Below are positions 1 to 15,113 of a DNA stretch of 64,000 bases, piece by piece. A program made the translations under genes and the position numbers. The notes beneath the pieces were generated by a model. It was not told where the DNA came from, searched no databases, and was given only the letters and a program-made list of their open reading frames with translations. How positions within the stretch are numbered: the first letter of the stretch is position 1; every line of letters starts with the position of its first letter. The stretch is from an uncultured delta proteobacterium. Its GTDB lineage: Bacteria > Myxococcota_A > Polyangia > Polyangiales > Polyangiaceae. The DNA is taken from NCBI GenBank assembly GCA_963716725.1, contig CAVQUB010000008.1, forward strand, positions 224,001 to 288,000, in the 5' to 3' direction.

Positions 1-1499
1 AGAGCGACATCGATCGTGCGATGGTGTCGACGGATTTGGCGCTCGTGCTGCCGAGTCGAGGCGGCAGCGCGAGCGAGAGCATCGACGGCGGATTCACCTG
101 GCGCGAGGTCGAGTTGCCCGCCGACGGCGCGGCCACCGTGGCGCGAGCGCGGACCGAACAGAGCGCGGAGCGCGGGTGTTCCCGCGTGGGCTGCGTCTCG
201 GGCGCCTGGATGCGTGTGGGCTGGCGGGGCCGTACCGAGAGCAGCGACATCGAGGTGGTCGACGCGCCGAAGCACTCGCGCCTGCCGGCGACCCGCGGCG
301 GGCGATGGAACCTCTCCTGCGCGGCCACCGGAGCGACGGCGGGTGCCCGAACGAAGGAGCCGAAGCCGCAAGAGCCCGACGAAGAGGTCGGCATGATCGG
401 CACGCCCGGCAGGTTTGGACACCGTTGGGGTGCCGCCCCGCCGACGGCTTCGGTCGAACTCAAGAGCAGCGACTGGCAGCCCTTCAAGGGCGTCGCGGCG
501 CCCGCCAAGAAACCCACGGAGCTTGGCTTCGACATGGGCACCGAGCACATGGGCGCTCAGGTACGGGCCTACGCCTGGGGAGCGCGCGGAGCCAGCTGGG
601 ATCGCGTGGGCCATTTCGTCTTGCGCGCGCACGATCCCTTCACGCTGGAGCGAGGCGTGTGGTCCACGGCCACCGTTCGCGGGCCCTGGAGCGACGACAC
701 GGCGGCCTCCCAGGTCTTCGGCCGCGACTACAACCAACCGAGTGCGTGGTTTCCCGTCATGGAGCCCTCGGGGCGCGCGGCTGCGATGCTGATCAACGCT
801 CGGGGTACGACGGATCTGCTGCTGCTCGAGGAGGGCCGCGGCGTCGTCACGGTGCAAGATTCAGCGCGCTGGGGCCTGTATCAGCTGTCCGGCGCGGTAA
901 AGGTCGGCAGTACCTGGTACCTCGGCTCGTACGTCGCGGGCAGCAACTTCCGCCTGTTCAAGGTCAACGCTGGTCGGGTCGAGCTGCTCCGCGACTACCC
1001 AATGACCGGCGGCTGGCGGCCCAACACCACGCTGGCCGTGAACTTGGTCCGCAACTCGCGCAGCGACGCCCTGGGCATTTGGGTCGAAGCAAAGCGCACG
1101 CGCGGCACCGGCACCGCTTGGTACGTCTACTCGCTCGATCCGGAGACCGGCGATCCGCTCGACATGCTCTCGATCGATCCGCAGGAGCTCTCGCGGCTGC
1201 CGGCGGCTTGCGTTCAAGGTGCCGACGGTTGGGTGTTGGTCGGTGAGCCACCCGTCGATCCCTACGTCGACTTCCTTCAGCATGCAGACGGCATCCGATC
1301 ACAAGCGGTGCGAGCGAAGATGATCGCGCGACCGCAAGGGCTCTGCGTAGAAGTACTGAGCGCTGAGGCCCAAGCCGATGTACCGGCGCGCATGCCTCGC
1401 GCCGACGGCGCCCTCGCGAGCGGTTCGGAGCCGATCCCGATGGTGCTCGAAGAGCGCGGTCGACTCGGTCGGCGTTGGGGTTTTCGCTGCGTGCGTTAG
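1..1499 (+). CDS. Hypothetical (probably secreted) protein, 5'-truncated by window edge; contains an Asp-box/BNR-like motif
   Basis: Frame is open from the window start to TAG at 1497-1499; motif SESIDGGFTW resembles an Asp-box. Confidence 0.6.
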   Translation, partial: SDIDRAMVSTDLALVLPSRGGSASESIDGGFTWREVELPADGAATVARARTEQSAERGCSRVGCVSGAWMRVGWRGRTESSDIEVVDAPKHSRLPATRGGRWNLSCAATGATAGARTKEPKPQEPDEEVGMIGTPGRFGHRWGAAPPTASVELKSSDWQPFKGVAAPAKKPTELGFDMGTEHMGAQVRAYAWGARGASWDRVGHFVLRAHDPFTLERGVWSTATVRGPWSDDTAASQVFGRDYNQPSAWFPVMEPSGRAAAMLINARGTTDLLLLEEGRGVVTVQDSARWGLYQLSGAVKVGSTWYLGSYVAGSNFRLFKVNAGRVELLRDYPMTGGWRPNTTLAVNLVRNSRSDALGIWVEAKRTRGTGTAWYVYSLDPETGDPLDMLSIDPQELSRLPAACVQGADGWVLVGEPPVDPYVDFLQHADGIRSQAVRAKMIARPQGLCVEVLSAEAQADVPARMPRADGALASGSEPIPMVLEERGRLGRRWGFRCVR

Positions 1500-1766
1500 C
1501 GGGCTTGGACCGCGTCGCATTGCATTCCTGAAAGACGCGTCACGCACTCGCGAAAGCGAGTGACCCACGACATTGATGAGCGCTTCCCAGCATTTGCAAT
1601 TTCTGTCGCAGACTGCTACCTGAATGTTCGTCCGCGTGGAGCGAGGCTGTCCCCCCCCCGGCCCCTTCACGCGGACTCTTTATCGAGAGGGGTGGAGGGG
1701 TGTGAAGCGGGCTCCGAACGGACAAGCGGCCCGAGGACCGCTAACCTCCTCATCTTGGAGGTAGCT

Positions 1767-4638
1767 TTGGCTCGTTCGTTCGTTCGCTTCTTGGTTCCGG
1801 CTGTCGCGCTCTCGGGGGCCGTGCTCGCGGCTAGCTGCACGGATGGTGAGGAAGGCACGACCGGCACGACGAAGCCGACCGTTCCGAAGCCGGCACCGGG
1901 TGAGATTCTGCGAGTGGCCTCCCACTCCGGAGTACGTCGCGCTTCAGGTGCAGCCTTCGTTCACTGTGCTCGCGCCGGGGCAGACGCGCGAGTTAGACCT
2001 GATCGTCGAGCCCGACGTGTGTGTGCCGACCAAGCTCACCTTCGAGAGCAGCGACCCCAGTGTGGTCGCGGCTCCTTCCCCGCAGCTGCTTTATTTCTCC
2101 AAGGCCAAAGCCCGGGTCCAGGTCATTGGCGGGGGCGTTGGGCAGGCCACGCTCACGGCGCACTTCCCGCGCGGAGACGGCACTGATGTCACCCTCGAGA
2201 TCCCCGTCGAGGTGATGACCACGGACATTCCCACGTGCAGCGGGAGTGGCGCCGGCAAGCTCGACGACGGCAAGACAGTGAAGGGCAGCGGCGGCCTCGC
2301 GGGAGCGAGCATCGGGCTCCAGGTCGGTGCGACTCAGCCCAACTCGGGCAGCACCCTCTGGTCGGACATCAAACCTTTCGACGTCACCATCGCTTGCGCC
2401 AAGGACCAACTCCCAGCCGGTTACACCGCGCTCGGCCCCGCCGTCAGTTTCGGCCCCGTCGGCACGCGGCTGCAGCGCGAGATCCCCTTCAGCGTCCCGA
2501 TGAACCCCGCGGTGATGCCCGACGCGGCGACGCTGCGGCACGTCACCGTCAGCTACACCGGTCCGCGCGCCAAGAAGCCTCGAGCCATCCCCATCGCGAA
2601 TCCGCGCATCGTGCGCACCGGCGCCGGCTACAGCCTCGAGTTCCTCGCGCCTTGGCTCGGCACCTATCAGGCGGTCGTGCAGACCGCGGGCGGCACCAAG
2701 AAGCGCACACGCCGGCTCACGCACCGCGCGCTGGTCGGGATCTCCATGGGCGGCGGCGGCACCGCGATGTTCGGCATGCGCAACCATGACCGCTTCGACG
2801 TGCTCGCGCCCCTCGGGGGTCCCGTCGACTGGACCTGGATGCTGGGTCACATCTATCGAAACCACCTCGGGGGCTGGTTGCCGAACGACGGGACGACGCC
2901 GCCGACGGAGCTCGCGCCGATGCCGACGGCGACGCTGCCCTACGAGCACCCGAGCACCTTCAACCAGTGGTGGTACGAGTACCCGAAGAACGGCAACGGC
3001 GGCAGCTTCCCCCGCGCCGAGTACGTGCAGATCTTCCGGGACCTCGCCCTGATGTTCGGAAATCCGAACAGCTACAATCCGGCCAAGGGCGCGGAGAACC
3101 TGCCCGCCGGCATCCCGCCGGACGACAAGTCGGTCGTGGGCGATCACCCCGGACGACAGTGCGCGGTCACGGTCGATCCGCTCGACGGCCCCGACAAAGA
3201 GAAGCAGGAAGAGCTCGACAAGAACTGCCCCATCGAACGATGCAGTCACGTCAAGACGCTGTCCGGCTACTACGACGACGAGTTCAACCCGAAGGGCACC
3301 TTTCCCGTCATCACGGTCTGCGACGGCTCCGCGCAAGACTCGGCACTCTCGCCCTACGCCAACACCTGGAAGCCCGAGAACAACAACAAGCCCCTCGAGC
3401 TGGCCCTGGCCGTCGACTACAACGGCAACGGTGTTCGCGACCTGAACGAGCCGCTCTTGCGCCAAGGCCACGAGGTCTACGACGACGTCGGCGAAGACGG
3501 CCTGCCGAGCACCAAAGAGCCCGGCTACGAAGCCGGCGTGAACGAAGATCCCGCCGGGGACGACTGGGAGCCGCAGTACAATCCGGCCGGCCTCGAGGGA
3601 AACTACCGCTGGGACACCGGCGAGCCCTTCAAGGACGACGGTCTGGACGGGGTGCCCAACACCAAGAGCAGCCCCTACGACTTTGGCGAGGGCAACGGCA
3701 AGTTCGACTACGCGCCCGGTTATCGCACCTTTCTCGAGCGCGACTCGCGCACCGTCATCGAGCAGCACGCCCTCGGCACCCACGCCAAGCCTCTCGACGA
3801 CGCTGCCCTCGCGCGCCTCGACTTGTGGACCGACGGCGGCACCCGCGACTTGTTCAACTTCGCGGTGGATGCTGCGGCGTTGACCGGCGCGTGGTCAGCT
3901 CGCGACCGCATCTCGCACTACTACATCGAGTCGCATCGCATCCCAGGACAGAACCCGAACGACCCCAAGGTCTTCTTCGGCAACCGCTTCGACTGGAGCT
4001 CCATCCCAGGCGGCGTGTTCTTGCGCTACGGCAAGATCGATCCTGCGCAGAAGGACATCGAAAACGGTTCGGGTCAGCACGTCGGGACCGTCGACGAGAT
4101 CGCGCGCCGCTTGCAGTCGGCGCTCTACTACATCGGTAGCCGCTGGCCCGACGCGCCGCGCAGTCACGACGAGGAGAGCCTGGTGGATCCCGCCGATGGA
4201 GCAGAGACCTGCGAGGTGGTCGGCGCATGTGACTGGGAGTTCACCGACTCCCGGGGCCGAAAGGGGCCGGTCAGCGTGAACCTGCCGCCGGGCTACGCGC
4301 ACAAAGATCTTCAGAACAAGCGCTACCCGGTCATCTTCTTGCTGCACGGCTACGGTCAGACGCCCGAAGACCTGAAGGCGGCGATCATCTTCCTCAAGAA
4401 CTGGATGAACTTCCCCACCGACTCCCACGCCACGCGCCTGCCCAAGGCCATCATGGTCTACGTGGATGGTCGCTGCCGGCCCGGTAAAGACGAGGCGGAG
4501 TGCATCCGCGGCACCTTCTACACCGACAGCGTGCGCGAGCACGGCCCCAAGACCGAGAGCTGGTTCCTCGAGCTGATGGACGCGGTCGACAAGAAGTACC
4601 GCACGCAGGGCCCGAGCGAGATCGATTGGGTGGAGTGA
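1767..4638 (+). CDS. Lipoprotein alpha/beta-hydrolase (esterase-like, circularly permuted); apparent +1 frameshift near 1905
   Basis: GGAGG at 1757-1761 and TTG at 1767 give MARSFVRFLVPAVALSGAVLAASC (lipobox) in one frame; the body with GISMGG and YPVIFLLHGYG is in the 1843..4638 frame. Confidence 0.75.
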
Positions 4639-4892
4639 TGTTGGTCCAGTGCCCAGACTGCCAGCGCCACGTGCGAGTCTCCGAGACGGAGTGCCCGTTC
4701 TGTGCGAATCCCAGCGGCGGCACCGGTCGACGACGTGCGCTCAAGGTGGTGCTCGCCGGCGCTGCCGGCGTCGCCGCCATGACCATCGGCATCGGCTGCG
4801 CCTACGGAATGCCGCCCGAGGATCCGGCCGATGCGGACGTGGACGCTGACGCCGGGATCGAGGACGCGCCCGACGACGCTCCAGGTCAATGA
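4638..4892 (+). CDS. Putative radical-SAM substrate peptide (84 aa): Zn ribbon, hydrophobic segment, C-AYG-MPP, acidic tail
   Basis: TGATG overlap with the upstream stop; CPDC..CPFC, RRR plus hydrophobic stretch, GIGCAYGMPP; ATGA overlap with the rSAM gene. Confidence 0.8.
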   Translation: MLVQCPDCQRHVRVSETECPFCANPSGGTGRRRALKVVLAGAAGVAAMTIGIGCAYGMPPEDPADADVDADAGIEDAPDDAPGQ

Positions 4893-6046
4893 GACGCGCC
4901 GCTGTCGGCGAAGCGCCGCGCCCCATCTACGTGGTGTGGGAGATCACCCTCGCCTGTGATCTCGCCTGCGGCCACTGCGGCTCGCGTGCGGGCAAGGCAA
5001 GGTCCGACGAGCTGTCCACCGCCGAGGCCCTCGACGTGGTGCGGCAGCTCGCCGAGCTCGGCACCGAGGAGATCACGCTGATCGGCGGCGAGGCTTATTT
5101 GCGGAAGGACTGGGCGACACTGGCCCGCGCCATCGTGGACGCCGGCATGCGCTGCGGCATGACCACCGCGGGTCGGGGCTTTGGCGCGCATCACGCGGCC
5201 GCCGCCCGAGACGCCGGCGTCTCGGCCATCAGCATCTCCCTCGACGGCCTGCGCGCGGCCCACGATCGGCAGCGCGTCTTCGGCAGCTTCGAGCGGGCCC
5301 TCGGCGCCATGCGCTTCATCCGCGCGGCGGGCCTCGGGCTCAACGCCAACACTCAGCTCAATCGGCTCAGCGTGCCAGATCTCGACGGCGTACTCGAGCT
5401 GCTGATCACCGAAGGCGCCCGCGGCTGGCAGCTGCAGATGACCGTGCCCATGGGGCGCGCGGTCGACAATCACGAATGGCTGCTCCAGCCCTGGGAGCTC
5501 CGCGAACTCTATCCGCGCCTCGCAGTTCTCGCCGAGCGCGGGCGAGCGGCCGGCGTCGCCTTCTGGCCCGCCAACAACATCGGATATTTCGGCCCCCACG
5601 AGAGCACGCTGCGCAACCGCGGTGCGCCCGGGGCGATGGTTTGGCACGGCTGCAACGCTGGCGTTTACGCCCTGGGCGTCGAGGCCGACGGCAGCATCAA
5701 GGGCTGCCCCTCGCTGCCGACGGATCACTACGTCGGAGGCAACGTGCGTGAGCGCTCGCTGCGCCAGATCTGGGACGACGCCTGCGAACTCCGCTTCATG
5801 CGCGACGAATCGCCGCGCGACCTCTGGGGTTTCTGCGCCAGCTGCTACTACGCAGAAGAGTGTCGCGGCGGCTGCACCTGGACCGCGCACACCTTCTTCG
5901 GCCGCGGGGGCAACAACCCCTATTGTCACCACCGCGCCCTCGAGCACGCGGCGCGCGGCTTGCGTGAGCGGCTCACGCCCGTGGCCGCCGCACCGGGGCT
6001 GCCCTTCGATCACGGTCGCTTCGAGATCGTGGTCGAGCCGGCTTGA
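4889..6046 (+). CDS. Radical SAM/SPASM peptide maturase, PlpX (splicease)-like
   Basis: WEITLACDLACGHCGSRAG (CxxxCxxC), IGGE, SPASM cysteines GCNAG, IKGCPSL, CASC..ECRGGC, NNPYCHHR. Confidence 0.9.
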   Translation: MRRAAVGEAPRPIYVVWEITLACDLACGHCGSRAGKARSDELSTAEALDVVRQLAELGTEEITLIGGEAYLRKDWATLARAIVDAGMRCGMTTAGRGFGAHHAAAARDAGVSAISISLDGLRAAHDRQRVFGSFERALGAMRFIRAAGLGLNANTQLNRLSVPDLDGVLELLITEGARGWQLQMTVPMGRAVDNHEWLLQPWELRELYPRLAVLAERGRAAGVAFWPANNIGYFGPHESTLRNRGAPGAMVWHGCNAGVYALGVEADGSIKGCPSLPTDHYVGGNVRERSLRQIWDDACELRFMRDESPRDLWGFCASCYYAEECRGGCTWTAHTFFGRGGNNPYCHHRALEHAARGLRERLTPVAAAPGLPFDHGRFEIVVEPA

Positions 6047-6844
6047 TCAGAGCGCAGCGACGAGGGCCCGGATCACGGCCTCGGCGAAGACCGCGCGCGT
6101 CTCGGGCTCGTCCCACCGCCGGGCTTCGCGATCGTCCAGGGCGTTGTGAGTCTCGATGATCACCGAAGGGATCTTGGGTCTCCAGAGCACGAAGACGCGC
6201 TCCGTGGCCGCGCGACGATCCACGAACACGCCGCGCTGCACGTCGTCAGCCGCGTAGGTCGGCGCGTACTCGGCGCCGGCGTAGGCCAGGAACCCGGACT
6301 GCTCCAGCGATCGACCGAGGGCCCGCGCGATCCCGACCCGCGCACCTATCGCGCTCGGCTCACCGTGATCCGACCAGAGTACCGACAGCCCCGGCGCCGA
6401 CCGGCTCCGCGAGCAGCTGGTCCCCGGTTCGGGTTGCCAGAGCTCGGTCTTACCGCGCACGTCGGAGTGCAGGCTCAGGAATACGTCCGCGGGCCAGGCC
6501 TCGGCCTCACGGATGCGCTCTCCGTAGGGAACGAGCTGATCGTTCCGGCGCGTGAGCTTGACGTCGAAGTGGCCAGTTCGGCTGAGCGCGGTCGCCAGAT
6601 CTTCGGCCAGAGCCAGCGTGAAGCTCTGTTCATCGCGGCAGAAGGCGTTCTTGTTTCCGGTGTTGCCTGGCGCGCCGTGTCCCGGGTCGACAACGACGCG
6701 GCGGGTGCCGAAGTTCACCGGGATCGTCGCGGTCGCCGGGTGCAGCTTGGCGTCGGGCCAGACCTCGGGCTCGAGCGCGCGGCCCAACGCCCAGCTCGAC
6801 AGCGCGAGCCCCGCGACCAACCCGAGAACCGCCGCCTTCCGCAC
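6047..6844 (-). CDS. N-acetylmuramoyl-L-alanine amidase (Amidase_3)
   Basis: Signal peptide; VVVDPGHG..E, FLSLHSD, PSVIIE zinc-amidase motifs. Confidence 0.85.
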   Translation of the reverse strand: MRKAAVLGLVAGLALSSWALGRALEPEVWPDAKLHPATATIPVNFGTRRVVVDPGHGAPGNTGNKNAFCRDEQSFTLALAEDLATALSRTGHFDVKLTRRNDQLVPYGERIREAEAWPADVFLSLHSDVRGKTELWQPEPGTSCSRSRSAPGLSVLWSDHGEPSAIGARVGIARALGRSLEQSGFLAYAGAEYAPTYAADDVQRGVFVDRRAATERVFVLWRPKIPSVIIETHNALDDREARRWDEPETRAVFAEAVIRALVAAL

Positions 6845-6914
6845 GACCGTGGCGGAATCATCGCCCAGGCCCCGGTCGATTCACGAGTTTGTGACGAAAT
6901 CCGGATCGCGCCGC

Positions 6915-7376
6915 TCACGGGCTCACGAACACCGCCATACCGACGCCGAAGATCAGGATGCCTGCCTCGAGGATCCAAAACAGCAGCCAGATCCCACCAA
7001 AGATGCCGCCCATGATCATGCCCACCAGCGCCAGGGTGGCGTTGTTGCCGGTGTCGTTCTCTTCCTTGGCCTTCTGACGTGCGCGGTTGCCGAAATAGAG
7101 CGCAGCAAAGCCCATCGGGAAACAGGTCGTCGACATGGTGGCGATGGCGAGCACGAGGGCGATGACGGCGTCGGAGTTCGTGGGCTTGGACGGGGTGCCG
7201 AAGGGTGCGCCGTAGGTCCCCGGAGGCGGTGGAACGAAACCCATCGGTCCTCCGGGCGGCGGGCCGCCGGGCGGAACACCGGGCGGAACACCTGGGGAAC
7301 CCCACGACGGACCGCCGGGCGGAACCCCCGGGGGACCTCCCGGGGGGCCCCAGGGCGGGCCAGGCGGCGGTTGCAT
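6915..7376 (-). CDS. Pro/Gly-rich membrane protein (DUF4190-like)
   Basis: PPGG repeats followed by two hydrophobic helices (N..AVIALVL; ALVGMIMGGI). Confidence 0.65.
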   Translation of the reverse strand: MQPPPGPPWGPPGGPPGVPPGGPSWGSPGVPPGVPPGGPPPGGPMGFVPPPPGTYGAPFGTPSKPTNSDAVIALVLAIATMSTTCFPMGFAALYFGNRARQKAKEENDTGNNATLALVGMIMGGIFGGIWLLFWILEAGILIFGVGMAVFVSP

Positions 7377-7377
7377 C

Positions 7378-8214
7378 TCAGCTCCGCTCCAGCTTCTTGG
7401 CCATCTGCTCGCCCAGCTGAGTCGCGCGCAATGTCGCGCTCTCGACGGCGTCGATCAGGGTGCGCCTGAGCCCACCGGCCTCCAGGGTGTGCAGGCCCGC
7501 GATGGCCGTTCCCCCCGGGCTGGTGACCATGTCCTTGAGGCGGCCCGGGTGCTCACCGGTATCGAGCAGGAGCTTGGCGGAGCCGTAGACCGTCTGCGCG
7601 GCGAGCAAGAGCGCGGTGTCGCGGTGGAGTCCGACCTTCACGCCTCCGTCGGCCATCGCCTCGATCATCAACATGACGTAGGCGGGGCCGCTGCCCGACA
7701 ATCCCGTGACCGCGTCGATCAACGACTCGTCGAGGACCACGCTGCGCCCGGTCGCGTCGAACAAGGTCTTGGCCAGGGCCACGTCTTCGTCGGTGGCGTG
7801 CGCTCCAGGTGCGATGCCGGTCGCGCCCGCGAGCACGATCGACGCGGTGTTGGGCATGGCGCGGACCACTCGGACACCGGTGTGCAGCCGCGACTCGATG
7901 GAACGAATCGGCACACCGGCGGCGATGGAAATCACCAGCGTGTCGGCCCGGATGCTGCCTCCGATCTCGTCGAGCACCCGGTCGATGACCTGTGGCTTGA
8001 CCGACAGCACCAGCAAGTCGGCCCAGGCCACCAGCTCTGCGTTGTCTTGGGTGGTCCCGATGCCGTGGAGCTTGGAGAGCTCGTCGAGACGCTCTCTGCG
8101 CACGTCGCTGACCCGCACGCGTGCGGGGTCCACCGTGCCCGACGCGAGCAGACCCCGGATCAGCGCCCCGGCCATGTTGCCCGCGCCGATCATCCCGACG
8201 TTCTTGGTCTTCAC
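7378..8214 (-). CDS. proC: Pyrroline-5-carboxylate reductase
   Basis: GMIGAGNMA, RAMPNT, TGLSGSGPAY, VTSPGGT; start set at GTG 8214. Confidence 0.95.
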   Translation of the reverse strand: MKTKNVGMIGAGNMAGALIRGLLASGTVDPARVRVSDVRRERLDELSKLHGIGTTQDNAELVAWADLLVLSVKPQVIDRVLDEIGGSIRADTLVISIAAGVPIRSIESRLHTGVRVVRAMPNTASIVLAGATGIAPGAHATDEDVALAKTLFDATGRSVVLDESLIDAVTGLSGSGPAYVMLMIEAMADGGVKVGLHRDTALLLAAQTVYGSAKLLLDTGEHPGRLKDMVTSPGGTAIAGLHTLEAGGLRRTLIDAVESATLRATQLGEQMAKKLERS

Positions 8215-8255
8215 GCGGCGTAGAATCGTCGAGTCGCGGGCCTCGGGCAAGGGCT

Positions 8256-8942
8256 TCAGAGGCCGAAGCGGGTCAGCGCGGCCCTCACCTCGGCGGCGTC
8301 GCGAGCCCGGAGTACGCCTTCTGGGAGCGCGCGATCGTCGCTGGGAGCAAACCAGACGGCGCGGGCCCCGACGCCGAGCGCACCGACGACGTCGGCGTCC
8401 CATGCGTCGCCCACGTGGATCATGGCCGAGGTCGGCACCCTCAGGCGTTCGGCGGTCCACTCGAAGATGGCCGGCTCGGGCTTCTCGATGCCCAGCACCC
8501 CCGAGTCGGCGAAGGCGCTGAAGCAGTCACGAATGCCCAGCTCGGTGCAGAGTTCGTTGAGTTTGCCCTCGCTGTTCGACACGACGCCCAACGGGACCTT
8601 CGGGTCGCAGAGATCGCGGACCAACTCGAACATGCCGGCGATGGGTCGGCGCCACAGGTTGGTCGACGGCTGCTCGGTCCAGAGCCACTCGGCGAGATCG
8701 CCTGCGGCCGACCGCGGTTCGACCCCGGAGCGTTCGAGCAAGGTGCGCATGAACGTGCACCAAGCGTCGTGGGCGACCAACCCTTGGCGTTTCGCCGCGC
8801 CATAGGCAGCCCAGGCCGCGGCGCTCTCCCCTTGGGCGCGCGAAGCGTCGAGCCCTGCGCCGCGCTCGGCCACGCGGTTCGCGAGCAGATCCAGATCGAG
8901 CTCCGCGAGGGTTTGTCCAAAGTCGAAGGTGACGGCGATCAT
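8256..8942 (-). CDS. HAD-family hydrolase
   Basis: FDFGQTL motif I, VVSN, EKPEPAIF, HVGD..DVVGA. Confidence 0.85.
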   Translation of the reverse strand: MIAVTFDFGQTLAELDLDLLANRVAERGAGLDASRAQGESAAAWAAYGAAKRQGLVAHDAWCTFMRTLLERSGVEPRSAAGDLAEWLWTEQPSTNLWRRPIAGMFELVRDLCDPKVPLGVVSNSEGKLNELCTELGIRDCFSAFADSGVLGIEKPEPAIFEWTAERLRVPTSAMIHVGDAWDADVVGALGVGARAVWFAPSDDRALPEGVLRARDAAEVRAALTRFGL

Positions 8943-10033
8943 TCGAACAGGCTCTTCAGCTTCTCCACGAAGGTCCTCTGCTTCGGCTGCACGTCTTCGC
9001 CCAGCTCTTTGCCCAGCTCGACCAAGAGCTCCCGTGCCCGCTCCGAGAGTTCGGTGGGCACTTCGACGCTGATTTCGACCAGCTGATCCCCCCGACCTGC
9101 CCGCAGGCGATGCGGCAGCCCTTTGCCTTTGATGCGTAGCACGGTGCCAGGCTGCGTCGCGGGCGGAACGCGCAGCTTCACTTTGCCATCGAGCGTCGGC
9201 ACCTCGACGTCACCCCCGACCGCGGCTTGCACGAAGCTGACGGGCACCACGCACACGACGTGGTCGCCGTCGCGGTGAAAGAGCGGGTGCGGCGCGACCT
9301 CGACGATGATCTCGAGATCCCCCGGCGGGCGATCTGCGCTGGTCCGGCTGCCGCCTCCTTCGACGGTGCGGTTCGAGCCCGAGTCGACGCCCGCTGGGAT
9401 GCTCACCTCGACGCTTCGGGTCTTCTTGCCGAGGCCCGCGCCCGAGCAACGCTTGCAGGGACTGCTTGGCAGCTGCCCCGTCCCCCGACAGCGCGAGCAC
9501 GGCCGTTCGAGCGCGATGGGAAACATTGCTTGTTGGAAGCGCACGCGACCGCGTCCGCTGCAGGCGCCGCAGCTCGTGACGCTGGCGCCGGGCTCCGCGC
9601 CGCTGCCTTTGCACTCATCGCAGCGATCGAGGACGTCGACTTGCACGACCTTCTCGCAGCCGCGCGCGGCCTCCTCGAAGCTGAGCTCGAGGGCGACCCG
9701 CAGGTTGCCGCGATCGCCCCCGCGGATCCCCATGGCCGCCAAGATGTCGCCGAACATGCCGTCGAAGCCACCGAGGTCAACGAAGGGCATGCCCCCGGGC
9801 CCCGCCCCGCCGGGTCGGAACGCCGCCTCGCCGTAGCGCTCCCAGGCCGCGCGCTTCTGCGGGTCGCTCAGGATTTGGTAGGCCTGATTGAGCTCGGTGA
9901 ACCGGTCGTGGGCCGCGGGGTCGCCGGGATTGCGATCGGGGTGGTGCTGCGCCGCCAACCGGCGAAACGCGGTCTTCAGCTCCGCGTCGCTCGCCCCTCG
10001 CCCGACGCCGAGCACCTCGTGAGGATCGCGCAC
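8939..10033 (-). CDS. dnaJ: Chaperone DnaJ
   Basis: J-domain HPD, G/F region, four CxxCxGxG repeats, C-terminal domain; start set at GTG 10033. Confidence 0.93.
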   Translation of the reverse strand: MRDPHEVLGVGRGASDAELKTAFRRLAAQHHPDRNPGDPAAHDRFTELNQAYQILSDPQKRAAWERYGEAAFRPGGAGPGGMPFVDLGGFDGMFGDILAAMGIRGGDRGNLRVALELSFEEAARGCEKVVQVDVLDRCDECKGSGAEPGASVTSCGACSGRGRVRFQQAMFPIALERPCSRCRGTGQLPSSPCKRCSGAGLGKKTRSVEVSIPAGVDSGSNRTVEGGGSRTSADRPPGDLEIIVEVAPHPLFHRDGDHVVCVVPVSFVQAAVGGDVEVPTLDGKVKLRVPPATQPGTVLRIKGKGLPHRLRAGRGDQLVEISVEVPTELSERARELLVELGKELGEDVQPKQRTFVEKLKSLFE

Positions 10034-11045: not shown

Positions 11046-14000
11046 CTACCGCACCGGTGTCCAGGTGGGGTGTGCTTGGCCGCTCAGGCGCGCGCGCCGT
11101 CGACGAAGCAGCGCCGCGCACGCGAGCGCCGTGAGCCACTCGGCCCCTGAACGCGGCGTGTTCGCCGGAACGCGGCAGCCACAGCCGCCGTCGTCGCCGC
11201 TGCTGTCACCCTTCTTGCCCCCGGTGGAGGTTCCACCTGTAGCGCTGCCGCCCGTCGAGCTGCCGCCTGTAGCGCTGCCGCCCGTAGCGCTGCCGCCCGT
11301 AGCGCTGCCGCCGGTGGCGCCCGAACCGCCGACACCCGAGTCGCTTCCGCCGTCGGCCGCCACGCAGGCGGTCCCGGCGCAGGTGTAGCCCGGTGCGCAG
11401 TCGTTCACTGACGAGCACTGCTGCTGACAAGCCCCACCCAAGCACTTGTACGGGACGCAAGACTGGGTCTGCCCATTCGCAAGCTTGACGGTGGTCGCAT
11501 CCTGGCAGGTGGCAGCGCCGGTCGTGCACTGGCCATTCGACGTATTGCAGGTGGCACCCTGGCTGCAATCCGCGTCGCCGGCGCAGCTGGCCTTGCAGGT
11601 GCCAGCCGTAGAGTTGCAGCCGTAGGGCGCGCAGTTCTTCGTGGTGGGCAGCGCGCACACTCCCACGCCGTCGCAGGTGCCCGCGGGTTGCGAGACGTCG
11701 CCGGTACACGCCGCGTCCTTGCAGGCCGTTCCCGATGCCGGATAGGTGCAGGCGTTCGGGCTGCTGCCGTCACACGCTCCCTTGCACTTGTCGCCAGCGA
11801 CACCCAGGCACTCGGGTCGAGGCTGGCGCGGCACGCCGGACACGATCTTGCACTGCCCGACGCTCCCAGTCTCTGCACAGGCCTGGCACTGACCACTGCA
11901 GGGCGAATCGCAGCAGACGCCGTCTGCACAGAAGCCGCTCTTGCAAGCGTTCGCGGCGGAGCAGCCCTTGCCATTGTCCGACTTGGCCACGCAAGCTCCG
12001 GTCGCGCAGTAGTAGTTCGTCTCACAGTCGGTGTCCGCGACGCAGGGGCTGGAGCAAGCGCTGGCCTTGCAGACGTAGGGCGAGCACGCGACGTCGGTCT
12101 GGGCGGTGCAGAGCCCCGCGCCGTTGCAGATCTTGCCGGTGACGTTGCCGTTGATGCAAGTGGACGGGCCGCAGCTCTTGCCGCTGGCACCCAGCGCGCA
12201 CTGGCCGGGAGTGCCCGAGCACGAGTTCTGCTCGCCGCACGGATCGCTAGAGGTCACGCACTGACTGCCGGGGTTGGTGCCTTGCTTGGCCGCGTTGCAG
12301 GTGCCGCTGTTGGCCGGGTTGGTGTCTTGCTTGTTGCCCGCGGCGCAGGCCATGCACTTGCCAGTGCAGGCCGTGTTGCAGCACACGCCGTCGGCGCAAT
12401 AGGTGGAGGCGCACTCGGCTGAGCTGGTGCAGGTCACGCCGAGGTTCTTCTTGGCCTGACACTTGTTGGTGCTGTCGCAGAAGTGGCCGGCGAGACACTG
12501 GGCGTCGCCGCTGCAAGTTGACGGGCACTGCGCCCCGCCGCCGCATTTGTAGAGGCCGCATTGGCCTGGCGAACCGGCGCTCAGAGCCGTGCAGGTCCCA
12601 TTCTGGGACGCGCCCAACGAAGACGCGCAGACGTCGCAGCCCTCGCCGCAAGTGCTGTCACAGCAGTACGAATCCGAACAGTTTCCGCTCAGGCACTCGC
12701 TGCCGGCCGAGCACGACTGCCCCTTGTTCTTCTTGCAGTTGCCGCTGCCGTCGCAGGCATTGACGGCAGAGCAGGTGCCAAGGTCTTCGGCGTTCTTGAT
12801 CACCGTGTCACAGATGCCCGTCCCCATCGTGCAGGATCGGCAGGGCGTGGTGCAGGCGTCGGAGCAGCACACGCTGTCCACGCAGTTGCCGTTCTTGCAC
12901 TCGGTCGACCCGCTGCAGCTCTGCCCGACCTTCTTCTTGCAGTTGCCGCCGCCGTCACAGCTGTTGTTGCCATTGCACTGGTCGTCGTCCTGGTTGGTCA
13001 CTGGCGTGGTGCATGTGCCCTGGGCGTTGGCGCAGGAAAGGCACGCTCCCGCCGCCGAATTGCACTTCGCGGCCTCCTTGCAGCAGGTATTGTCCACGCA
13101 GGCACCCACCGCGCACTGGCTGCCGGCGCTGCAGCTCTGACCGTCGTTCAGCTTGCACGCGCCGGCCGCGTCGCAGATGTTCGCGCCGCTGCATCCGCTT
13201 GGGTCGGGGGCGCCTTTGATTTGAATGCACTTCCCGGGGAGGTTGGTTCCGTCTGTGAGATTGCAAGACGAGCAGTCGGGGCAGCTCGAGGTCTCGCAGC
13301 AGAAGCCGTCCACGCAATACCCCGTGTCACATTGGGAGCCCGATGTGCATATTCCGCCGAACGCGTGGTATTCCCAGGTCTCGCTCCTCGGAGTGCCTTC
13401 CCCATCCTGGAAGCCACCGAACATCACGGTGCGCCCGCGGTTGGCGTCGAAGGCCATCCCAAAGTTCTGCCGCGGGACGCTGGTGGCGTCGGTCTTGGTC
13501 CAGACCGTGCCGTTCCACTCCCAGGTGTCGCTGAAGCTGTTGGTGGGCGGCGCAGCCCCGTTGTTGCCGCCGAACAGGACGACTTTTCCGCGTCGACTGT
13601 CGTAGGCCATGCCGAAACCGCTGCGAGGCTCCGGCCTCGTGGTGCCGGAGACGCAGCTGGTGCAGGCCTGGGACCAGGTCTGGGTCGCCGAGTCCCAGAG
13701 CCAGGTCTCGGAGCTTAGCCCTGCAGCGTTGCCTCCGAACAGGACGGTCTTGGCGTGCGCTGCGTCGTAGGCCATGGCGTGGCCGAGGCGCGCACTGGGT
13801 TTGGTGGTGCCGGTCACACAAGTCGTGCACTTGGCGGTCCACGTCGTGCCGTTCCACACCCAGGTGTCGTCCAGGAGCGTGCCCTCATAGCCGCCGAAGA
13901 GCACGGTGCCATAGCCGGCGTGATAGGCCATGGCGCTCGACTTGCGGCCGGACGGTCGGAACGGCGCAGCCGTGGGTGTGCAGGTGGCGCATTGCTGCGT

Positions 14001-15113
14001 CCAGTTGGCGCCGTCCCAGAGCCAGGTGTCGCCGGCGCTCGGGTCGGTCGAGCTGTAGCTCGTCTCACCACCAAAGACGAGCACGCCCTTCGTCGAGCCG
14101 TCGTGAAACGCGACGGCGTGCTGGGTGCGGGGAGCGGGACCACAGGCCGCGAGCGGCGATCCGCAGCGCTGCGTCCACGTGGTGCCGTCCCACTCCCAGG
14201 TGTCGTCTCTCTTGGACGCGCCGCCGTGCTGTCCACCGAAGAGCACCGTCACGTTCCGGCTAGGGCGGGGGTCGTAGGCCAGCGGAGCCCACCGAGTGGC
14301 CAGACCAGTCGGCGCCGCGAGGTCGTCCTGCTTCAGCTCCCACAGGTAGCTCTCAATCATGGGATCCAGAAGCACTGGGTACTCGAGCCCTCGGGTGTCG
14401 AGCTCCACGGCCAGCTCGTCGCCAGCGAACGTGAGCTTGGCCTCGCGTCGGGTTCCGGCGCGGTCCAGCGCGAAGGCGGGCAAGATCCGCAGCGCCGCTT
14501 CCCCTTGGGCGTTGACGAAGCGAATGCCTTCGCCCGGCGACTGACGCACTTCCGTGAACGCCGGGCCGCGCACCACCGACCAGGCGAAGCGTCGCGGGGC
14601 GCGCGCGTCGCGCAACAGGAACAGCTGCTCCACCCGGCCCGGCGTGGCCACCACTACGAGATCCGTGGCTGGGTAGGCGTTCTCGTAGGTGACGCGACCC
14701 TCGCTGAGGACGGCCACGGATCCAGTGGCCGCACCCAGGGGTCGAAGCTCGAGTCGATGCCCGTCGCGGCGCGCGACGTTCAGCTCGACGGTGCCGTCCG
14801 CGGTCGCCGGGAGTCGCCCCGCCAGCGAGCCTTCCACGCCGCTCCTCGAACCGGGAGAAGAGAACGCGGTCCCGTCGAGCTGCCACCCCTCGGCGCTCGG
14901 AGCGAGCAGCCGATCGAGCGTTGGATCGGGTCGGGCCAAGGCGCGCACGGAAGCGAGCGCGCCGCTGGGTGTCAGGCCCGCGTCTGGAGTCGTCGCGGGC
15001 TCACTATCGGTGGCCGAGCACGCGGTCGCCGCAACGACGACCAACGGGGCTACTCTCGCGCGCAAGAACCTCAACGCCTCACTGCACCGCATGAACGACC
15101 CTCCGATGTTCAA
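11046..15113 (-). CDS. Large secreted Kelch-like beta-propeller plus Cys-rich repeat protein with MYXO-CTERM
   Basis: Repeats MAYD..VLFGG..DTWxWxG; many Cys-rich CxDxxCC-type repeats; GGSAT linker; GGCGC-hydrophobic-RRRR C-terminus. True start may be 15092. Confidence 0.85.
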   Translation of the reverse strand: MNIGGSFMRCSEALRFLRARVAPLVVVAATACSATDSEPATTPDAGLTPSGALASVRALARPDPTLDRLLAPSAEGWQLDGTAFSSPGSRSGVEGSLAGRLPATADGTVELNVARRDGHRLELRPLGAATGSVAVLSEGRVTYENAYPATDLVVVATPGRVEQLFLLRDARAPRRFAWSVVRGPAFTEVRQSPGEGIRFVNAQGEAALRILPAFALDRAGTRREAKLTFAGDELAVELDTRGLEYPVLLDPMIESYLWELKQDDLAAPTGLATRWAPLAYDPRPSRNVTVLFGGQHGGASKRDDTWEWDGTTWTQRCGSPLAACGPAPRTQHAVAFHDGSTKGVLVFGGETSYSSTDPSAGDTWLWDGANWTQQCATCTPTAAPFRPSGRKSSAMAYHAGYGTVLFGGYEGTLLDDTWVWNGTTWTAKCTTCVTGTTKPSARLGHAMAYDAAHAKTVLFGGNAAGLSSETWLWDSATQTWSQACTSCVSGTTRPEPRSGFGMAYDSRRGKVVLFGGNNGAAPPTNSFSDTWEWNGTVWTKTDATSVPRQNFGMAFDANRGRTVMFGGFQDGEGTPRSETWEYHAFGGICTSGSQCDTGYCVDGFCCETSSCPDCSSCNLTDGTNLPGKCIQIKGAPDPSGCSGANICDAAGACKLNDGQSCSAGSQCAVGACVDNTCCKEAAKCNSAAGACLSCANAQGTCTTPVTNQDDDQCNGNNSCDGGGNCKKKVGQSCSGSTECKNGNCVDSVCCSDACTTPCRSCTMGTGICDTVIKNAEDLGTCSAVNACDGSGNCKKNKGQSCSAGSECLSGNCSDSYCCDSTCGEGCDVCASSLGASQNGTCTALSAGSPGQCGLYKCGGGAQCPSTCSGDAQCLAGHFCDSTNKCQAKKNLGVTCTSSAECASTYCADGVCCNTACTGKCMACAAGNKQDTNPANSGTCNAAKQGTNPGSQCVTSSDPCGEQNSCSGTPGQCALGASGKSCGPSTCINGNVTGKICNGAGLCTAQTDVACSPYVCKASACSSPCVADTDCETNYYCATGACVAKSDNGKGCSAANACKSGFCADGVCCDSPCSGQCQACAETGSVGQCKIVSGVPRQPRPECLGVAGDKCKGACDGSSPNACTYPASGTACKDAACTGDVSQPAGTCDGVGVCALPTTKNCAPYGCNSTAGTCKASCAGDADCSQGATCNTSNGQCTTGAATCQDATTVKLANGQTQSCVPYKCLGGACQQQCSSVNDCAPGYTCAGTACVAADGGSDSGVGGSGATGGSATGGSATGGSATGGSSTGGSATGGTSTGGKKGDSSGDDGGCGCRVPANTPRSGAEWLTALACAALLRRRRARLSGQAHPTWTPVR
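11221..11315 (-). repeat. 15-nt coding tandem repeat (GGSAT linker)
   Basis: gtagcgctgccgccc-type units repeated in-frame. Confidence 0.8.

Follow-up and report, generated by a model that had tools for sequence, protein, structure and literature searches.

A probable binary spliceotide-type module of a zinc-ribbon peptide and a radical SAM/SPASM enzyme in Polyangia, located in one genus behind an esterase-like lipoprotein gene

The peptide gene at 4638..4892 and the radical SAM (rSAM) gene at 4889..6046, both on the forward strand of the window (the whole 64,000-nucleotide stretch of DNA analysed), appear to form a binary spliceotide-type RiPP module, in which a splicease ('X') acts on a substrate ('A') and a Y protein is absent. 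Judged from sequence comparison, structural models, and analogy with characterized systems, this reading has a probability of about 0.72. Tyramine excision at an XYG motif, leaving an alpha-keto-beta-amino residue, is described in the available text of PMC11414181 and PMC11626197. The splicease-plus-substrate reading, in which the 84-aa protein is likely the substrate of the rSAM, is well supported because HMM matches, a family-wide YG, the adjacency of the two genes, and a controlled co-fold point to it. The peptide/rSAM module appears to be common in the window's group of myxobacteria; its putative link to the hydrolase gene upstream is confined to one genus.

The hydrolase gene (1767..4638, forward strand), encoding a lipoprotein of about 956 aa, was delimited from the ORFs, the reading frames, and an intact 956-aa relative. 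Its stop codon overlaps the start of the peptide gene (TGATG, 4636..4640), and the stop codon of the peptide gene overlaps the start of the rSAM gene (ATGA, 4889..4892). Both overlaps, described in the first-pass annotation, were found and are conserved in relatives. The geometry of the TGATG junction is kept in the relatives' loci compared (L001-L003 and L102-L105), and this overlap is conserved in every genome with the three-gene arrangement (G000, G170, G341, G342, G343, and L001-L003). Since stop and start codons overlap in the window's genus, the three genes are probably co-transcribed there.

The start codon of the hydrolase gene is a TTG at 1767 behind GGAGG at 1757-1761, and the segment 1767..1838 encodes a lipoprotein signal peptide with the lipobox LAAS-Cys (Cys codon 1836-1838), identified from the sequence and from L001-L003 and the protein P0132. 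As assembled, 1767..4638 is split between two frames: that of 1767, with the signal peptide, and that of ORF 1843..4638, with the 931-aa body. The signal and the body lie in a single frame in L001-L003, by comparison with which the window carries a single additional base near 1905-1906, and P0132, a 99%-identical 956-aa protein, is intact with the same signal in frame with the body. One letter fewer is present at 1906 in all contigs compared, which come from three public runs (X1, X3, and X6) of two studies; two of these runs are possibly from the source sample itself. Accordingly, the surplus base at 1905..1906 is an assembly error, not biology, and the earlier gene limits are therefore right for the real organism, although the assembled sequence is not one open frame.

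The 385-aa enzyme was assigned to the splicease-type rSAM/SPASM proteins from NCBIfam, Pfam, and its invariant cysteines. In a scan of 59 NCBIfam families, TIGR04103 gave the best score (500.3 bits) and TIGR03913, 'GDL motif peptide-associated radical SAM/SPASM maturase', the second (440.1 bits), with the next family far lower at 155.5 bits. The splicease-type placement proposed at first pass thus stands as to the best family, but the scores lie under the curated cut-offs of both families (725 and 591.75, respectively). The match to TIGR03913 spans only profile positions 18-389 of 477, and its cut-off was passed in none of the 251 genomes of the class in a profile search; a homologue with 65% identity (P0028) carries the name of this family at NCBI. 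The Pfam domains PF04055 and PF13186 were detected. The CX3CX2C motif of the radical-SAM [4Fe-4S] cluster (C23, C27, and C30; 4955..4978, from sequence and conservation) and the SPASM region (Cys 255, 273, 316, 319, 325, 329, and 346; 5651..5926, from Pfam, conservation, and co-fold) are both recognizable, and none of these cluster cysteines varies among 33 sequences. In the co-fold, the SPASM region and residues 234-239 jointly contribute to the predicted surface on which the zinc ribbon docks.

TIGR04103 presumably corresponds to IPR026482. The accessible part of PMC11002830 places PlpX in IPR026482. No PqqD/RRE-type match was found among the five proteins scanned around the locus, in agreement with the earlier observation that no separate PlpY/RRE gene lies nearby. 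The non-cyanobacterial spliceotide pathways all lack a Y protein, as far as the available text of PMC11414181 describes them, so that this arrangement is normal for such systems and only type I is excluded.

The 84-aa precursor (4638..4892, defined by its ORF, alignments, and co-fold) combines a zinc ribbon and a hydrophobic, lipobox-like segment with one AYG site and an acidic tail. The putative zinc ribbon (4650..4703) contains C5, C8, C19, and C22 and the invariant pair R10-H11, as judged from invariant columns and the co-fold. The hydrophobic segment (4737..4799, from sequence and family) comprises 20 residues (34-53) preceded by RRRALK and ends in I-G-I-G-Cys54. It is followed by the predicted splice site A55-Y56-G57 (4800..4808), supported by conservation, the family motif, and the co-fold; the AYG reported earlier for the middle gene was thus located. 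CAYGMP is found unchanged in all 12 aligned homologues.

These peptides belong to a large family of Polyangia, in which a 4-Cys zinc ribbon at the N-terminus is followed by a hydrophobic segment running to a lipobox-like Cys and by a tail carrying one to five xYG[AG]PP units. YG is present in 60 of 63 distinct complete peptides and absent from the other three, and Gly directly follows 120 of 141 tail tyrosines, Gly making up 15% of tail residues. The family site reads [PIA][AV][PA][ALKV]-Y-G-[AG]-P-P; the peptide of the window has one site only, and its Met at +2 is a rarity in the family (4%). A loose pattern finds a lipobox-like Cys after the hydrophobic segment in 52 of 63 peptides, many with the classic LAAC or LAGC, and an envelope or lipopeptide fate is therefore plausible. 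Lipidation of the window's own peptide is uncertain because Cys54 lies behind a folded zinc ribbon, far beyond the usual lipobox position, with Gly at -3. Its hydrophobic segment may be a signal-anchor or an atypical lipoprotein signal. Of the cell-envelope ketoamide peptide proposed at first pass, the envelope location is accordingly retained as plausible and the lipidation as conjectural.

A search with the peptide profile returned 23 loci, in 14 of which (L001-L008, L013, L015, L017-L019, and L023) an rSAM of 45-84% identity lies beside one to five peptides. Conversely, a strict zinc-ribbon peptide was found within 1.5 kb in 25 of 30 rSAM loci sampled from the class and was not found within that distance in the other five. 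Across the class, 128 of 251 genomes encode the rSAM, with as many as seven copies in a single genome, and the window's own genome holds a second set of three peptides and an rSAM on another contig (C3). Elsewhere the pair is flanked by unrelated housekeeping genes, among which no conserved protease or exporter was found.

Co-folding of the peptide with the rSAM supports binding, with a score of 0.81 (runs 0.90, 0.81, and 0.81), compared with 0.00 for the best control. Of 80 solved complexes, 58 attained a score of 0.81, as did 2 of 110 mismatched pairs. The models were built on self-made alignments, at least 38% of contacts were shared between the runs, and the partner pLDDT was at least 49, the partner's own fold being uncertain in at least one run. 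The confident interface comprises peptide residues 2-4, 8-11, 20-21, 56, and 58, including Tyr56 and Met58, and the zinc-ribbon residues 2-4, 8-11, and 20-21 are predicted to contact the conserved rSAM residues 234-239, 320-324, 348, and 351. The zinc ribbon is therefore proposed as the recognition (leader) element for the rSAM.

In the hydrolase, a Big_2-type Ig-like domain and a ZU5-like beta-sandwich accompany an esterase-like alpha/beta-hydrolase domain, which is circularly permuted and contains large insertions. Pfam PF00756 matched residues 805-921 with 28.6 bits (cut-off 22), covering only profile positions 5-112 of 251 at the C-terminal end of the protein, and in a phmmer search of the PDB the segments aligned in swapped order. 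The predicted nucleophile (Ser codon 2743..2745, in G-I-S-M-G-G) was identified by conservation and by alignment to the GLSMGG elbow of the CE1 feruloyl esterase XynZ (1jjf), and does not vary among the 40 aligned homologues (S279 in alignment numbering). In the same way, the oxyanion-hole-type segment H-G-Y-G (4345..4356) aligns to the LLHG of 1jjf (residues 38-77), and H813-G816 is invariant in all 40 homologues, most of which come from no known rSAM context. Since this HG lies C-terminal to the nucleophile, the order of the domain is permuted. H724, which is also invariant, and several Asp can be guessed as candidates for the His and Asp of the triad.

The AF2 model of the hydrolase (pLDDT 86.5, pTM 0.90) has its best fold match over the catalytic domain in the PHB depolymerase of Penicillium funiculosum (2d81_A; Z 15.0, rmsd 4.0, 241 residues aligned, within model residues 270..898), which we take to be a permuted alpha/beta hydrolase. 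Both in 2d81, as the entry title 'S39A' implies, and in the hydrolase of the window, the nucleophile is found early in the domain. Unlike 2d81 and 1jjf, the window's protein has about 956 aa, a lipoprotein signal, Ig-like and ZU5-like domains, and long insertions with Asp-rich repeats. On these alignments and this model, the hydrolase is a circularly permuted esterase-like lipoprotein resembling esterases and PHB depolymerase, not proteases.

The first-pass annotation had regarded this hydrolase as the target, partner, or processing enzyme of the peptide, and a membrane-tethered ketoamide peptide could be conceived as dedicated to the co-translated serine-hydrolase lipoprotein, whether by inhibiting, regulating, or tethering it or as its substrate. 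The conserved TGATG overlap is in its favour, both products would be in the envelope, and spliceotide ketoamides inhibit Ser/Cys proteases according to the available text of PMC11626197. In the genome G107, moreover, a related single-site pair also lies behind a large lipoprotein hydrolase, a non-homologous amidohydrolase (PF01979), and its rSAM groups with that of the window with an SH-aLRT of 97 in a quick tree with a long branch. However, the window's genus is the only one in which the esterase precedes the pair (5 of 7 genomes), and neither peptide nor rSAM was found within 4 kb downstream in any of the eight next-closest hydrolase orthologues (45-67% identity). Among the 251 class genomes, the hydrolase occurs in 77 and adjoins the rSAM only in G000 and G170. 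Single-site peptide/rSAM pairs of other genera stand behind unrelated genes; upstream of six other CAYG-type pairs are an ABC1 kinase, a T2SS ATPase (twice), PolX, a sigma-54 activator, and one family-less protein, none of them an envelope hydrolase. The esterase-like fold likewise speaks against a protease target. The adjacency was thus recovered within the genus and not outside it, and comparison gives no sign of the hydrolase as a dedicated partner; the claim is therefore weakly supported and the reading rather unlikely.

The possibility that the rSAM performs another modification at or near the YG, such as a cross-link, a Cys54 thioether, or an epimerization, instead of tyramine excision was considered quite improbable. 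SPASM enzymes catalyse many chemistries, the sub-cut-off scores for both named families leave room for one of these, and Cys54 lies two residues ahead of Tyr56; however, most sites of the family have no nearby Cys, the conserved unit is x-Y-G-[AG]-P-P, and splicing at XYG is the only chemistry found reported for close relatives. Slightly less probable still is that the 84-aa protein serves the rSAM as a zinc-ribbon membrane adaptor, an accessory activator resembling PlpY that tethers the enzyme to the membrane, and that the true substrate is another protein, the hydrolase with its invariant HGYG being one candidate. Some rSAMs of the class (G201 and G206) carry a zinc ribbon in cis at the C-terminus, a part absent from the window's enzyme, and TIGR03913 positions 428-460, also C-terminal, weakly resemble the zinc-ribbon N-terminus of the peptides (E 0.06-0.28), but conservation in the peptide tails is highest at YG, which recurs up to five times, Tyr56 falls within the confident interface, and the hydrolase carries an export signal and an HGYG that aligns with the esterase oxyanion HG and is kept in homologues mostly from no known rSAM context.

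The binary module has its closest counterparts in the type II-like spliceotide systems RhaX/RhaA, RcsX/RcsA, and RasX/RasA of Rheinheimera, which, in the accessible parts of PMC11414181 and PMC11626197, likewise pair a precursor with an rSAM/SPASM enzyme and lack a Y protein. An XYG target, an N-terminal precursor part predicted to dock on the enzyme, and a co-fold that places the YG tyrosine at the enzyme are shared, as far as those texts describe them, whereas the leader is a 4-Cys zinc ribbon in the window and a helix in Rheinheimera. The window further differs in its membrane or lipobox-like segment between leader and core, in the G/P/D-rich core of its family, where xYG[AG]PP is repeated (its own peptide having one AYGMPP), in its myxobacterial host, and in the lack of graspetide and exporter genes at the locus, and is known here from genes and models. 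The type I systems PlpXY/PlpA and PcpXY/PcpA of Pleurocapsa (TIGR04103/IPR026482) share the XYG site and the best HMM family of the rSAM, but the window's enzyme scores under 725, and its locus has no Y protein, no Nif11/NHLP leader, and no epimerase.

In the binary spliceotide-type reading, the 84-aa protein would be made in the cytoplasm, and its zinc ribbon would dock on the SPASM-side surface of the rSAM, as the co-fold and conservation suggest. By analogy with characterized spliceases, the enzyme would then act on the single A55-Y56-G57, excising a tyramine equivalent and leaving an Ala-derived alpha-keto-beta-amino (ketoamide) residue. The hydrophobic segment, with its positive N-side and lipobox-like Cys54, may take the C-terminal part across the inner membrane. 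The protein would then either stay signal-anchored or be processed by Lgt/LspA to an acidic, lipidated peptide of 31 residues, the second of which would be the ketoamide. In the latter case the leader would also be removed by general lipoprotein processing, which would explain a family without a protease or exporter gene. In the window's genus, the two-gene module seems to have come to lie directly behind the gene of an esterase-like lipoprotein that, on its own, is widespread in the class.

A more speculative extension is that the Polyangia precursors form a spliceotide class whose leader, combining a zinc ribbon with a lipoprotein signal, is cleaved off by the general lipoprotein pathway. 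The N-terminally lipidated ketoamide peptides would then be exposed in the envelope or on vesicles of predatory myxobacteria and act there as tethered covalent-reversible hydrolase inhibitors. In the window's genus, the single-site form, whose ketoamide would immediately follow the lipidated Cys, would be dedicated to the co-translated permuted esterase. We consider this extension rather unlikely; as far as checked, no description was found of such a peptide class or of its dedication to a permuted esterase. The hydrolase pairing would be of consequence only if experimentally shown.

Spliceases introduce beta-amino ketoamide residues into ribosomal peptides, with uses in protein engineering and in making protease inhibitors, and no native final spliceotide product had been isolated at the time of PMC9811515, according to its available text. 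The Polyangia family is unusual in its high frequency, in its putative zinc-ribbon recognition element, which is fused to the enzyme in some members, and in its apparent built-in export/lipidation signal. The zinc-ribbon/rSAM pair might serve as a compact new tag system. If the proposed module is true, it would represent a natural answer both to leader removal without dedicated proteases and to the product's site of action.

The hydrolase, the peptide, and the radical SAM enzyme (rSAM) are encoded in this order on one strand, by the lipoprotein gene 1767..4638 (+), an 84-aa ORF at 4638..4892 (+), and a 385-aa ORF at 4889..6046 (+). The junctions are TGATG at 4636-4640 and ATGA at 4889-4892, and thus both overlaps described in the first-pass annotation, together with its 84-aa AYG peptide, could be read in the window. 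The hydrolase gene opens at a TTG start codon at 1767 with GGAGG ahead of it, and its lipoprotein signal (..LSGAVLAASC) is of the classic type. In the window, this signal lies in the frame of 1767, and the 931-aa body is found in another frame as the ORF 1843..4638. In the relatives at loci L001-L003, signal and body share one frame, which reads ..KPAPGEICEWPP.., and exactly the same KPAPGEICEWPP sequence is present in the database protein P0132 (956 aa, 99% identical to the hydrolase). One letter is also absent at position 1906 in contigs from three public runs (two studies); those of two runs match the window almost identically and may come from its source sample. Therefore, the frameshift is an assembly error, and the true hydrolase gene is 1767..4638 minus one base. 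A further run, X5, has no contig across 1868-2056 and does not bear on the frameshift.

A promoter scan of 1300-7000 returned no promoter-like sites, and terminator-like sites in the same scan were near chance level. Convergent with the rSAM gene, with zero spacer, lies an N-acetylmuramoyl-L-alanine amidase gene (PF01520; 6047-6844, -); such an amidase also adjoins rSAM in L002 and is more distant in L003. The region 11046-15113 (-) encodes a secreted protein of 1355 aa with many Cys-rich repeats and a Gly/Ser/Thr-rich C-terminal region, which closes with ..GGCGCRV.. and a tail that is hydrophobic and rich in Arg; this end resembles the C-terminal sorting signals of myxobacteria.

Pfam analysis of rSAM revealed the domains Radical_SAM and SPASM. 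Among the NCBIfam families, rSAM scored 500.3 bits for TIGR04103 (nif11-class peptide radical SAM maturase 3; cut-off 725) and 440.1 bits for TIGR03913 (GDL-motif-peptide-associated radical SAM/SPASM maturase; cut-off 591.75), followed by 155.5 bits for the third-ranking family. Judged by these profile scores, rSAM sits with TIGR04103 and TIGR03913, under both cut-offs; the proposed splicease family thus held as to the top-ranking profiles, but neither cut-off was reached. We take IPR026482 to be the InterPro form of TIGR04103. PMC11002830 assigns PlpX, the founding splicease, to IPR026482. The CX3CX2C motif and the seven SPASM cysteines were invariant in 33/33 aligned rSAM homologues. Homologues at 60-68% identity were very numerous, and one of them carries the NCBI name of a GDL-motif maturase. 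In a quick tree, the rSAMs of the window, L001-L003, and genome G107 formed one group (SH-aLRT 97), with that of G107 on a long branch.

Eleven close homologues of the peptide have C5, C8, C19, C22, R10-H11, and C54-A-Y-G-M-P as invariant residues, the last of which joins the lipobox-like Cys54 to the candidate splice site A55-Y56-G57. A peptide scan, which took one genome per species and whose record titles were nearly all Polyangia/Myxococcota MAGs, found 23 loci. The gene order in L001-L003 was hydrolase-peptide-rSAM, and 11 further loci contained an rSAM at 54-59% (L004-L008, L013, L015, and L017-L019) or 45% identity (L023), adjoining small paralogous proteins, one to five per locus. Common to these proteins are an N-terminal zinc ribbon (CPxCxRHVRxxExxCPFC) followed by a basic stretch, a hydrophobic segment that mostly closes in a lipobox-like Cys (..TALAAC, ..LALAGC), and a Gly/Asp/Pro-rich tail containing repeats (e.g., VPVYGAPAGG, AAYGGPPVD). 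An independent second sample comprised 30 rSAM loci taken from 251 Polyangia genomes; at 25 of these loci, a zinc-ribbon peptide was present within 1.5 kb.

At least one YG was found in 60 of the 63 distinct complete peptides, of which 3 (L001-L003) came from a search pattern containing AY and the rest from the zinc ribbon or rSAM. Gly directly followed 120 of the 141 tail tyrosines, at a tail Gly content of 15%, and a loose lipobox pattern was matched by 52/63 peptides. The site context was [PIA][AV][PA][ALKV]-Y-G-[AG]-P-P; the window site, IGC-A-Y-G-M-P-P-E-D, fits this motif, with Met at +2 being rare. Searches of the peptides against NCBIfam and Pfam gave no family at E <= 0.01, the matches being weak zinc-ribbon look-alikes (E 0.006-5).

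The zinc ribbon of the peptides gave a weak match to the C-terminal part of the TIGR03913 profile (E 0.06-0.28). The rSAMs of L082 (G201:C9) and L083 (G206:C950) carry a C-terminal CPxC...CxxC zinc ribbon and a helix in cis, and these ribbons matched the TIGR03913 profile up to about position 470. Together, these matches fit a docking role for the ribbon. PMC11414181 describes an engineered enzyme-leader fusion, to which the cis ribbon is a natural counterpart.

A controlled co-fold of rSAM with the peptide scored 0.81 (runs 0.90, 0.81, and 0.81), and the best of three controls scored 0.00. The mark was reached by 58/80 solved complexes and 2/110 mismatched pairs, which is a rough guide with our own alignments (33 rows for rSAM and 12 for the peptide). 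Contact agreement between runs was at least 38%, and partner pLDDT was at least 49. The confident contacts joined peptide residues 2-4, 8-11 (C-Q-R-H), and 20-21 to rSAM residues 234-239, 249, 251, 320-321, 324, 348, and 351, which fall in invariant or nearly invariant stretches of the 33-row alignment. The confident interface also took in Tyr56 and Met58 of the peptide and residues 92, 181, and 226 of rSAM, which would line the barrel, given the usual rSAM layout. The predicted complex supports binding of the peptide by rSAM. In AlphaFold models of known spliceases presented in PMC11414181, the active centre holds the XYG site, with a leader or Y-protein element docked onto the enzyme; the co-fold of the window pair mirrors these models in placing both the YG tyrosine and a docking element at the enzyme.

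The hydrolase matched the Pfam family Esterase at profile positions 5-112 of 251 only, i.e., the first half, at its very C-terminus. Alignment with PDB sequences paired hydrolase residues 293-326 (..GISMGGGG..) with residues 145-178 of the feruloyl esterase XynZ, and residues 800-843 (..YPVIFLLHGYG..) with XynZ residues 38-77, so that the two halves occur in swapped order. The AlphaFold2 model (909 residues, pLDDT 86.5, pTM 0.90) comprised an Ig-like domain (4-105), a ZU5-like sandwich (111-263), and a catalytic fold, whose best match by VIA-align was the PHB depolymerase 2d81_A (Z 15.0, rmsd 4.0, 241 residues, model 270..898); Foldseek with the whole model returned Ig-domain matches only. The title of the 2d81 entry (S39A) shows an early nucleophile, and we take this enzyme to be a circularly permuted alpha/beta hydrolase. 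The alpha/beta fold encoded at 1909-4635 is likewise circularly permuted, with the nucleophile elbow about 530 residues ahead of the oxyanion HG strand; elbow and strand are separated by long insertions with many Asp-x-Asp-Gly motifs (e.g., VDYNGNGVRD, DDGLDGVPN), which look calcium-binding. The designation of a serine hydrolase was therefore right in kind, but, going by the XynZ alignment and the 2d81 fold, the protein resembles an esterase, not a protease. The HGYG of the hydrolase was rejected as a splice site, as it aligns to the oxyanion motif of esterases and is invariant in 40/40 homologues, the majority of which came from outside any known rSAM context.

The hydrolase family counts 556 relatives in the database, with lengths of about 950-1030 aa. 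In the 251 genomes of the class, the hydrolase was detected in 77 and rSAM in 128 (up to seven copies), and among the matches listed the two were adjacent in G000, the window's own genome, and G170 only. No peptide, rSAM, or amidase was found in the 4 kb downstream of any of the eight next-closest hydrolase orthologues (45-67% identity). A peptide match was obtained in 205 of 383 genomes of the family, a tally that includes the unpublished genome G516, used for this count alone. Peptides of the window type (..G[IL]GCAYG[MLC]P..) with an rSAM of 63-75% identity behind them occurred in at least nine genera; upstream of the pair, the esterase was confined to the window's genus, in 5/7 genomes (G000, G170, G341, G342, and G343). 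The upstream genes elsewhere encoded an ABC1 kinase, a T2SS-type ATPase (two genomes of one genus), PolX, a sigma-54 activator, and one family-less protein. At eight multi-YG loci in which the peptide precedes rSAM, no hydrolase was found, and the flanks of eleven further loci held mixed housekeeping genes. This adjacency pattern across genera shows that what is conserved is the pair of peptide and rSAM genes, and that its position downstream of the esterase is a trait at the level of the genus. The first-pass annotation had proposed the hydrolase as target, partner, or processing enzyme of the peptide; synteny rules it out as a general partner, and this pairing proved the weakest part of that idea.

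Genome G107 contains an operon-like row (L093, G107:C2:55500-65500, positions 3662-9548), in which a 905-aa lipoprotein amidohydrolase (PF01979 and a TSP_3 repeat) stands upstream of a 97-aa CAYG peptide and an rSAM whose start overlaps the peptide stop; a 520-aa family-less protein, whose start overlaps the rSAM stop, closes the row. The amidohydrolase is unrelated to the window's esterase, and the row is a single, suggestive parallel to the hydrolase pairing.

Two more such rSAMs are encoded in the window's own genome, on contigs C3 and C21. The first (L040, C3:128773-129885) is 51% identical to that of the window; about 3.5 kb away, at 124.3-125.6 kb, lie three tandem zinc-ribbon/lipobox peptides with two to three xYGPPP sites each. 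The second (C21:155226-156260; L041 4939-6285, -) is a 449-aa splicease-like rSAM whose branch in the tree is very long. At its C-terminus it is fused to a hydrophobic segment (..AAFGIGCAG..) and to a Pro-rich tail containing EYAVEPPP, EYAVEAPP, and a terminal KYGVRPPKE; it is possibly an enzyme-substrate fusion.

A splicease with a YG substrate is of a kind already known. According to PMC10849128 and PMC10533398, Scott et al. 2022 surveyed 189 genera for YG-rich ORFs next to rSAMs of the PlpX type; 27 pairs were confirmed, and 939 systems are predicted. The class described here may well be among those listed in the text or supplements of that study. In the other literature searched, no paper joined spliceases with zinc-ribbon or lipobox precursors, Sorangium, or Sandaracinus.

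Spliceases cut out a tyramine equivalent at XYG to leave an alpha-keto-beta-amino residue (PMC11414181, PMC11626197, PMC10533398). Non-cyanobacterial splicease pathways are described in PMC11414181 as having no Y protein; therefore, the absence of a separate PlpY from the locus, pointed out earlier, is ordinary. Inhibition of Ser/Cys proteases is attributed to spliceotides only in their spliced form (PMC11626197). In the mechanism we propose, the zinc ribbon of the peptide would serve as a cytoplasmic leader, rSAM would splice the peptide at AYG, and the hydrophobic segment would then export the tail, after which LspA/Lgt processing at Cys54 may strip the leader and lipidate the product.
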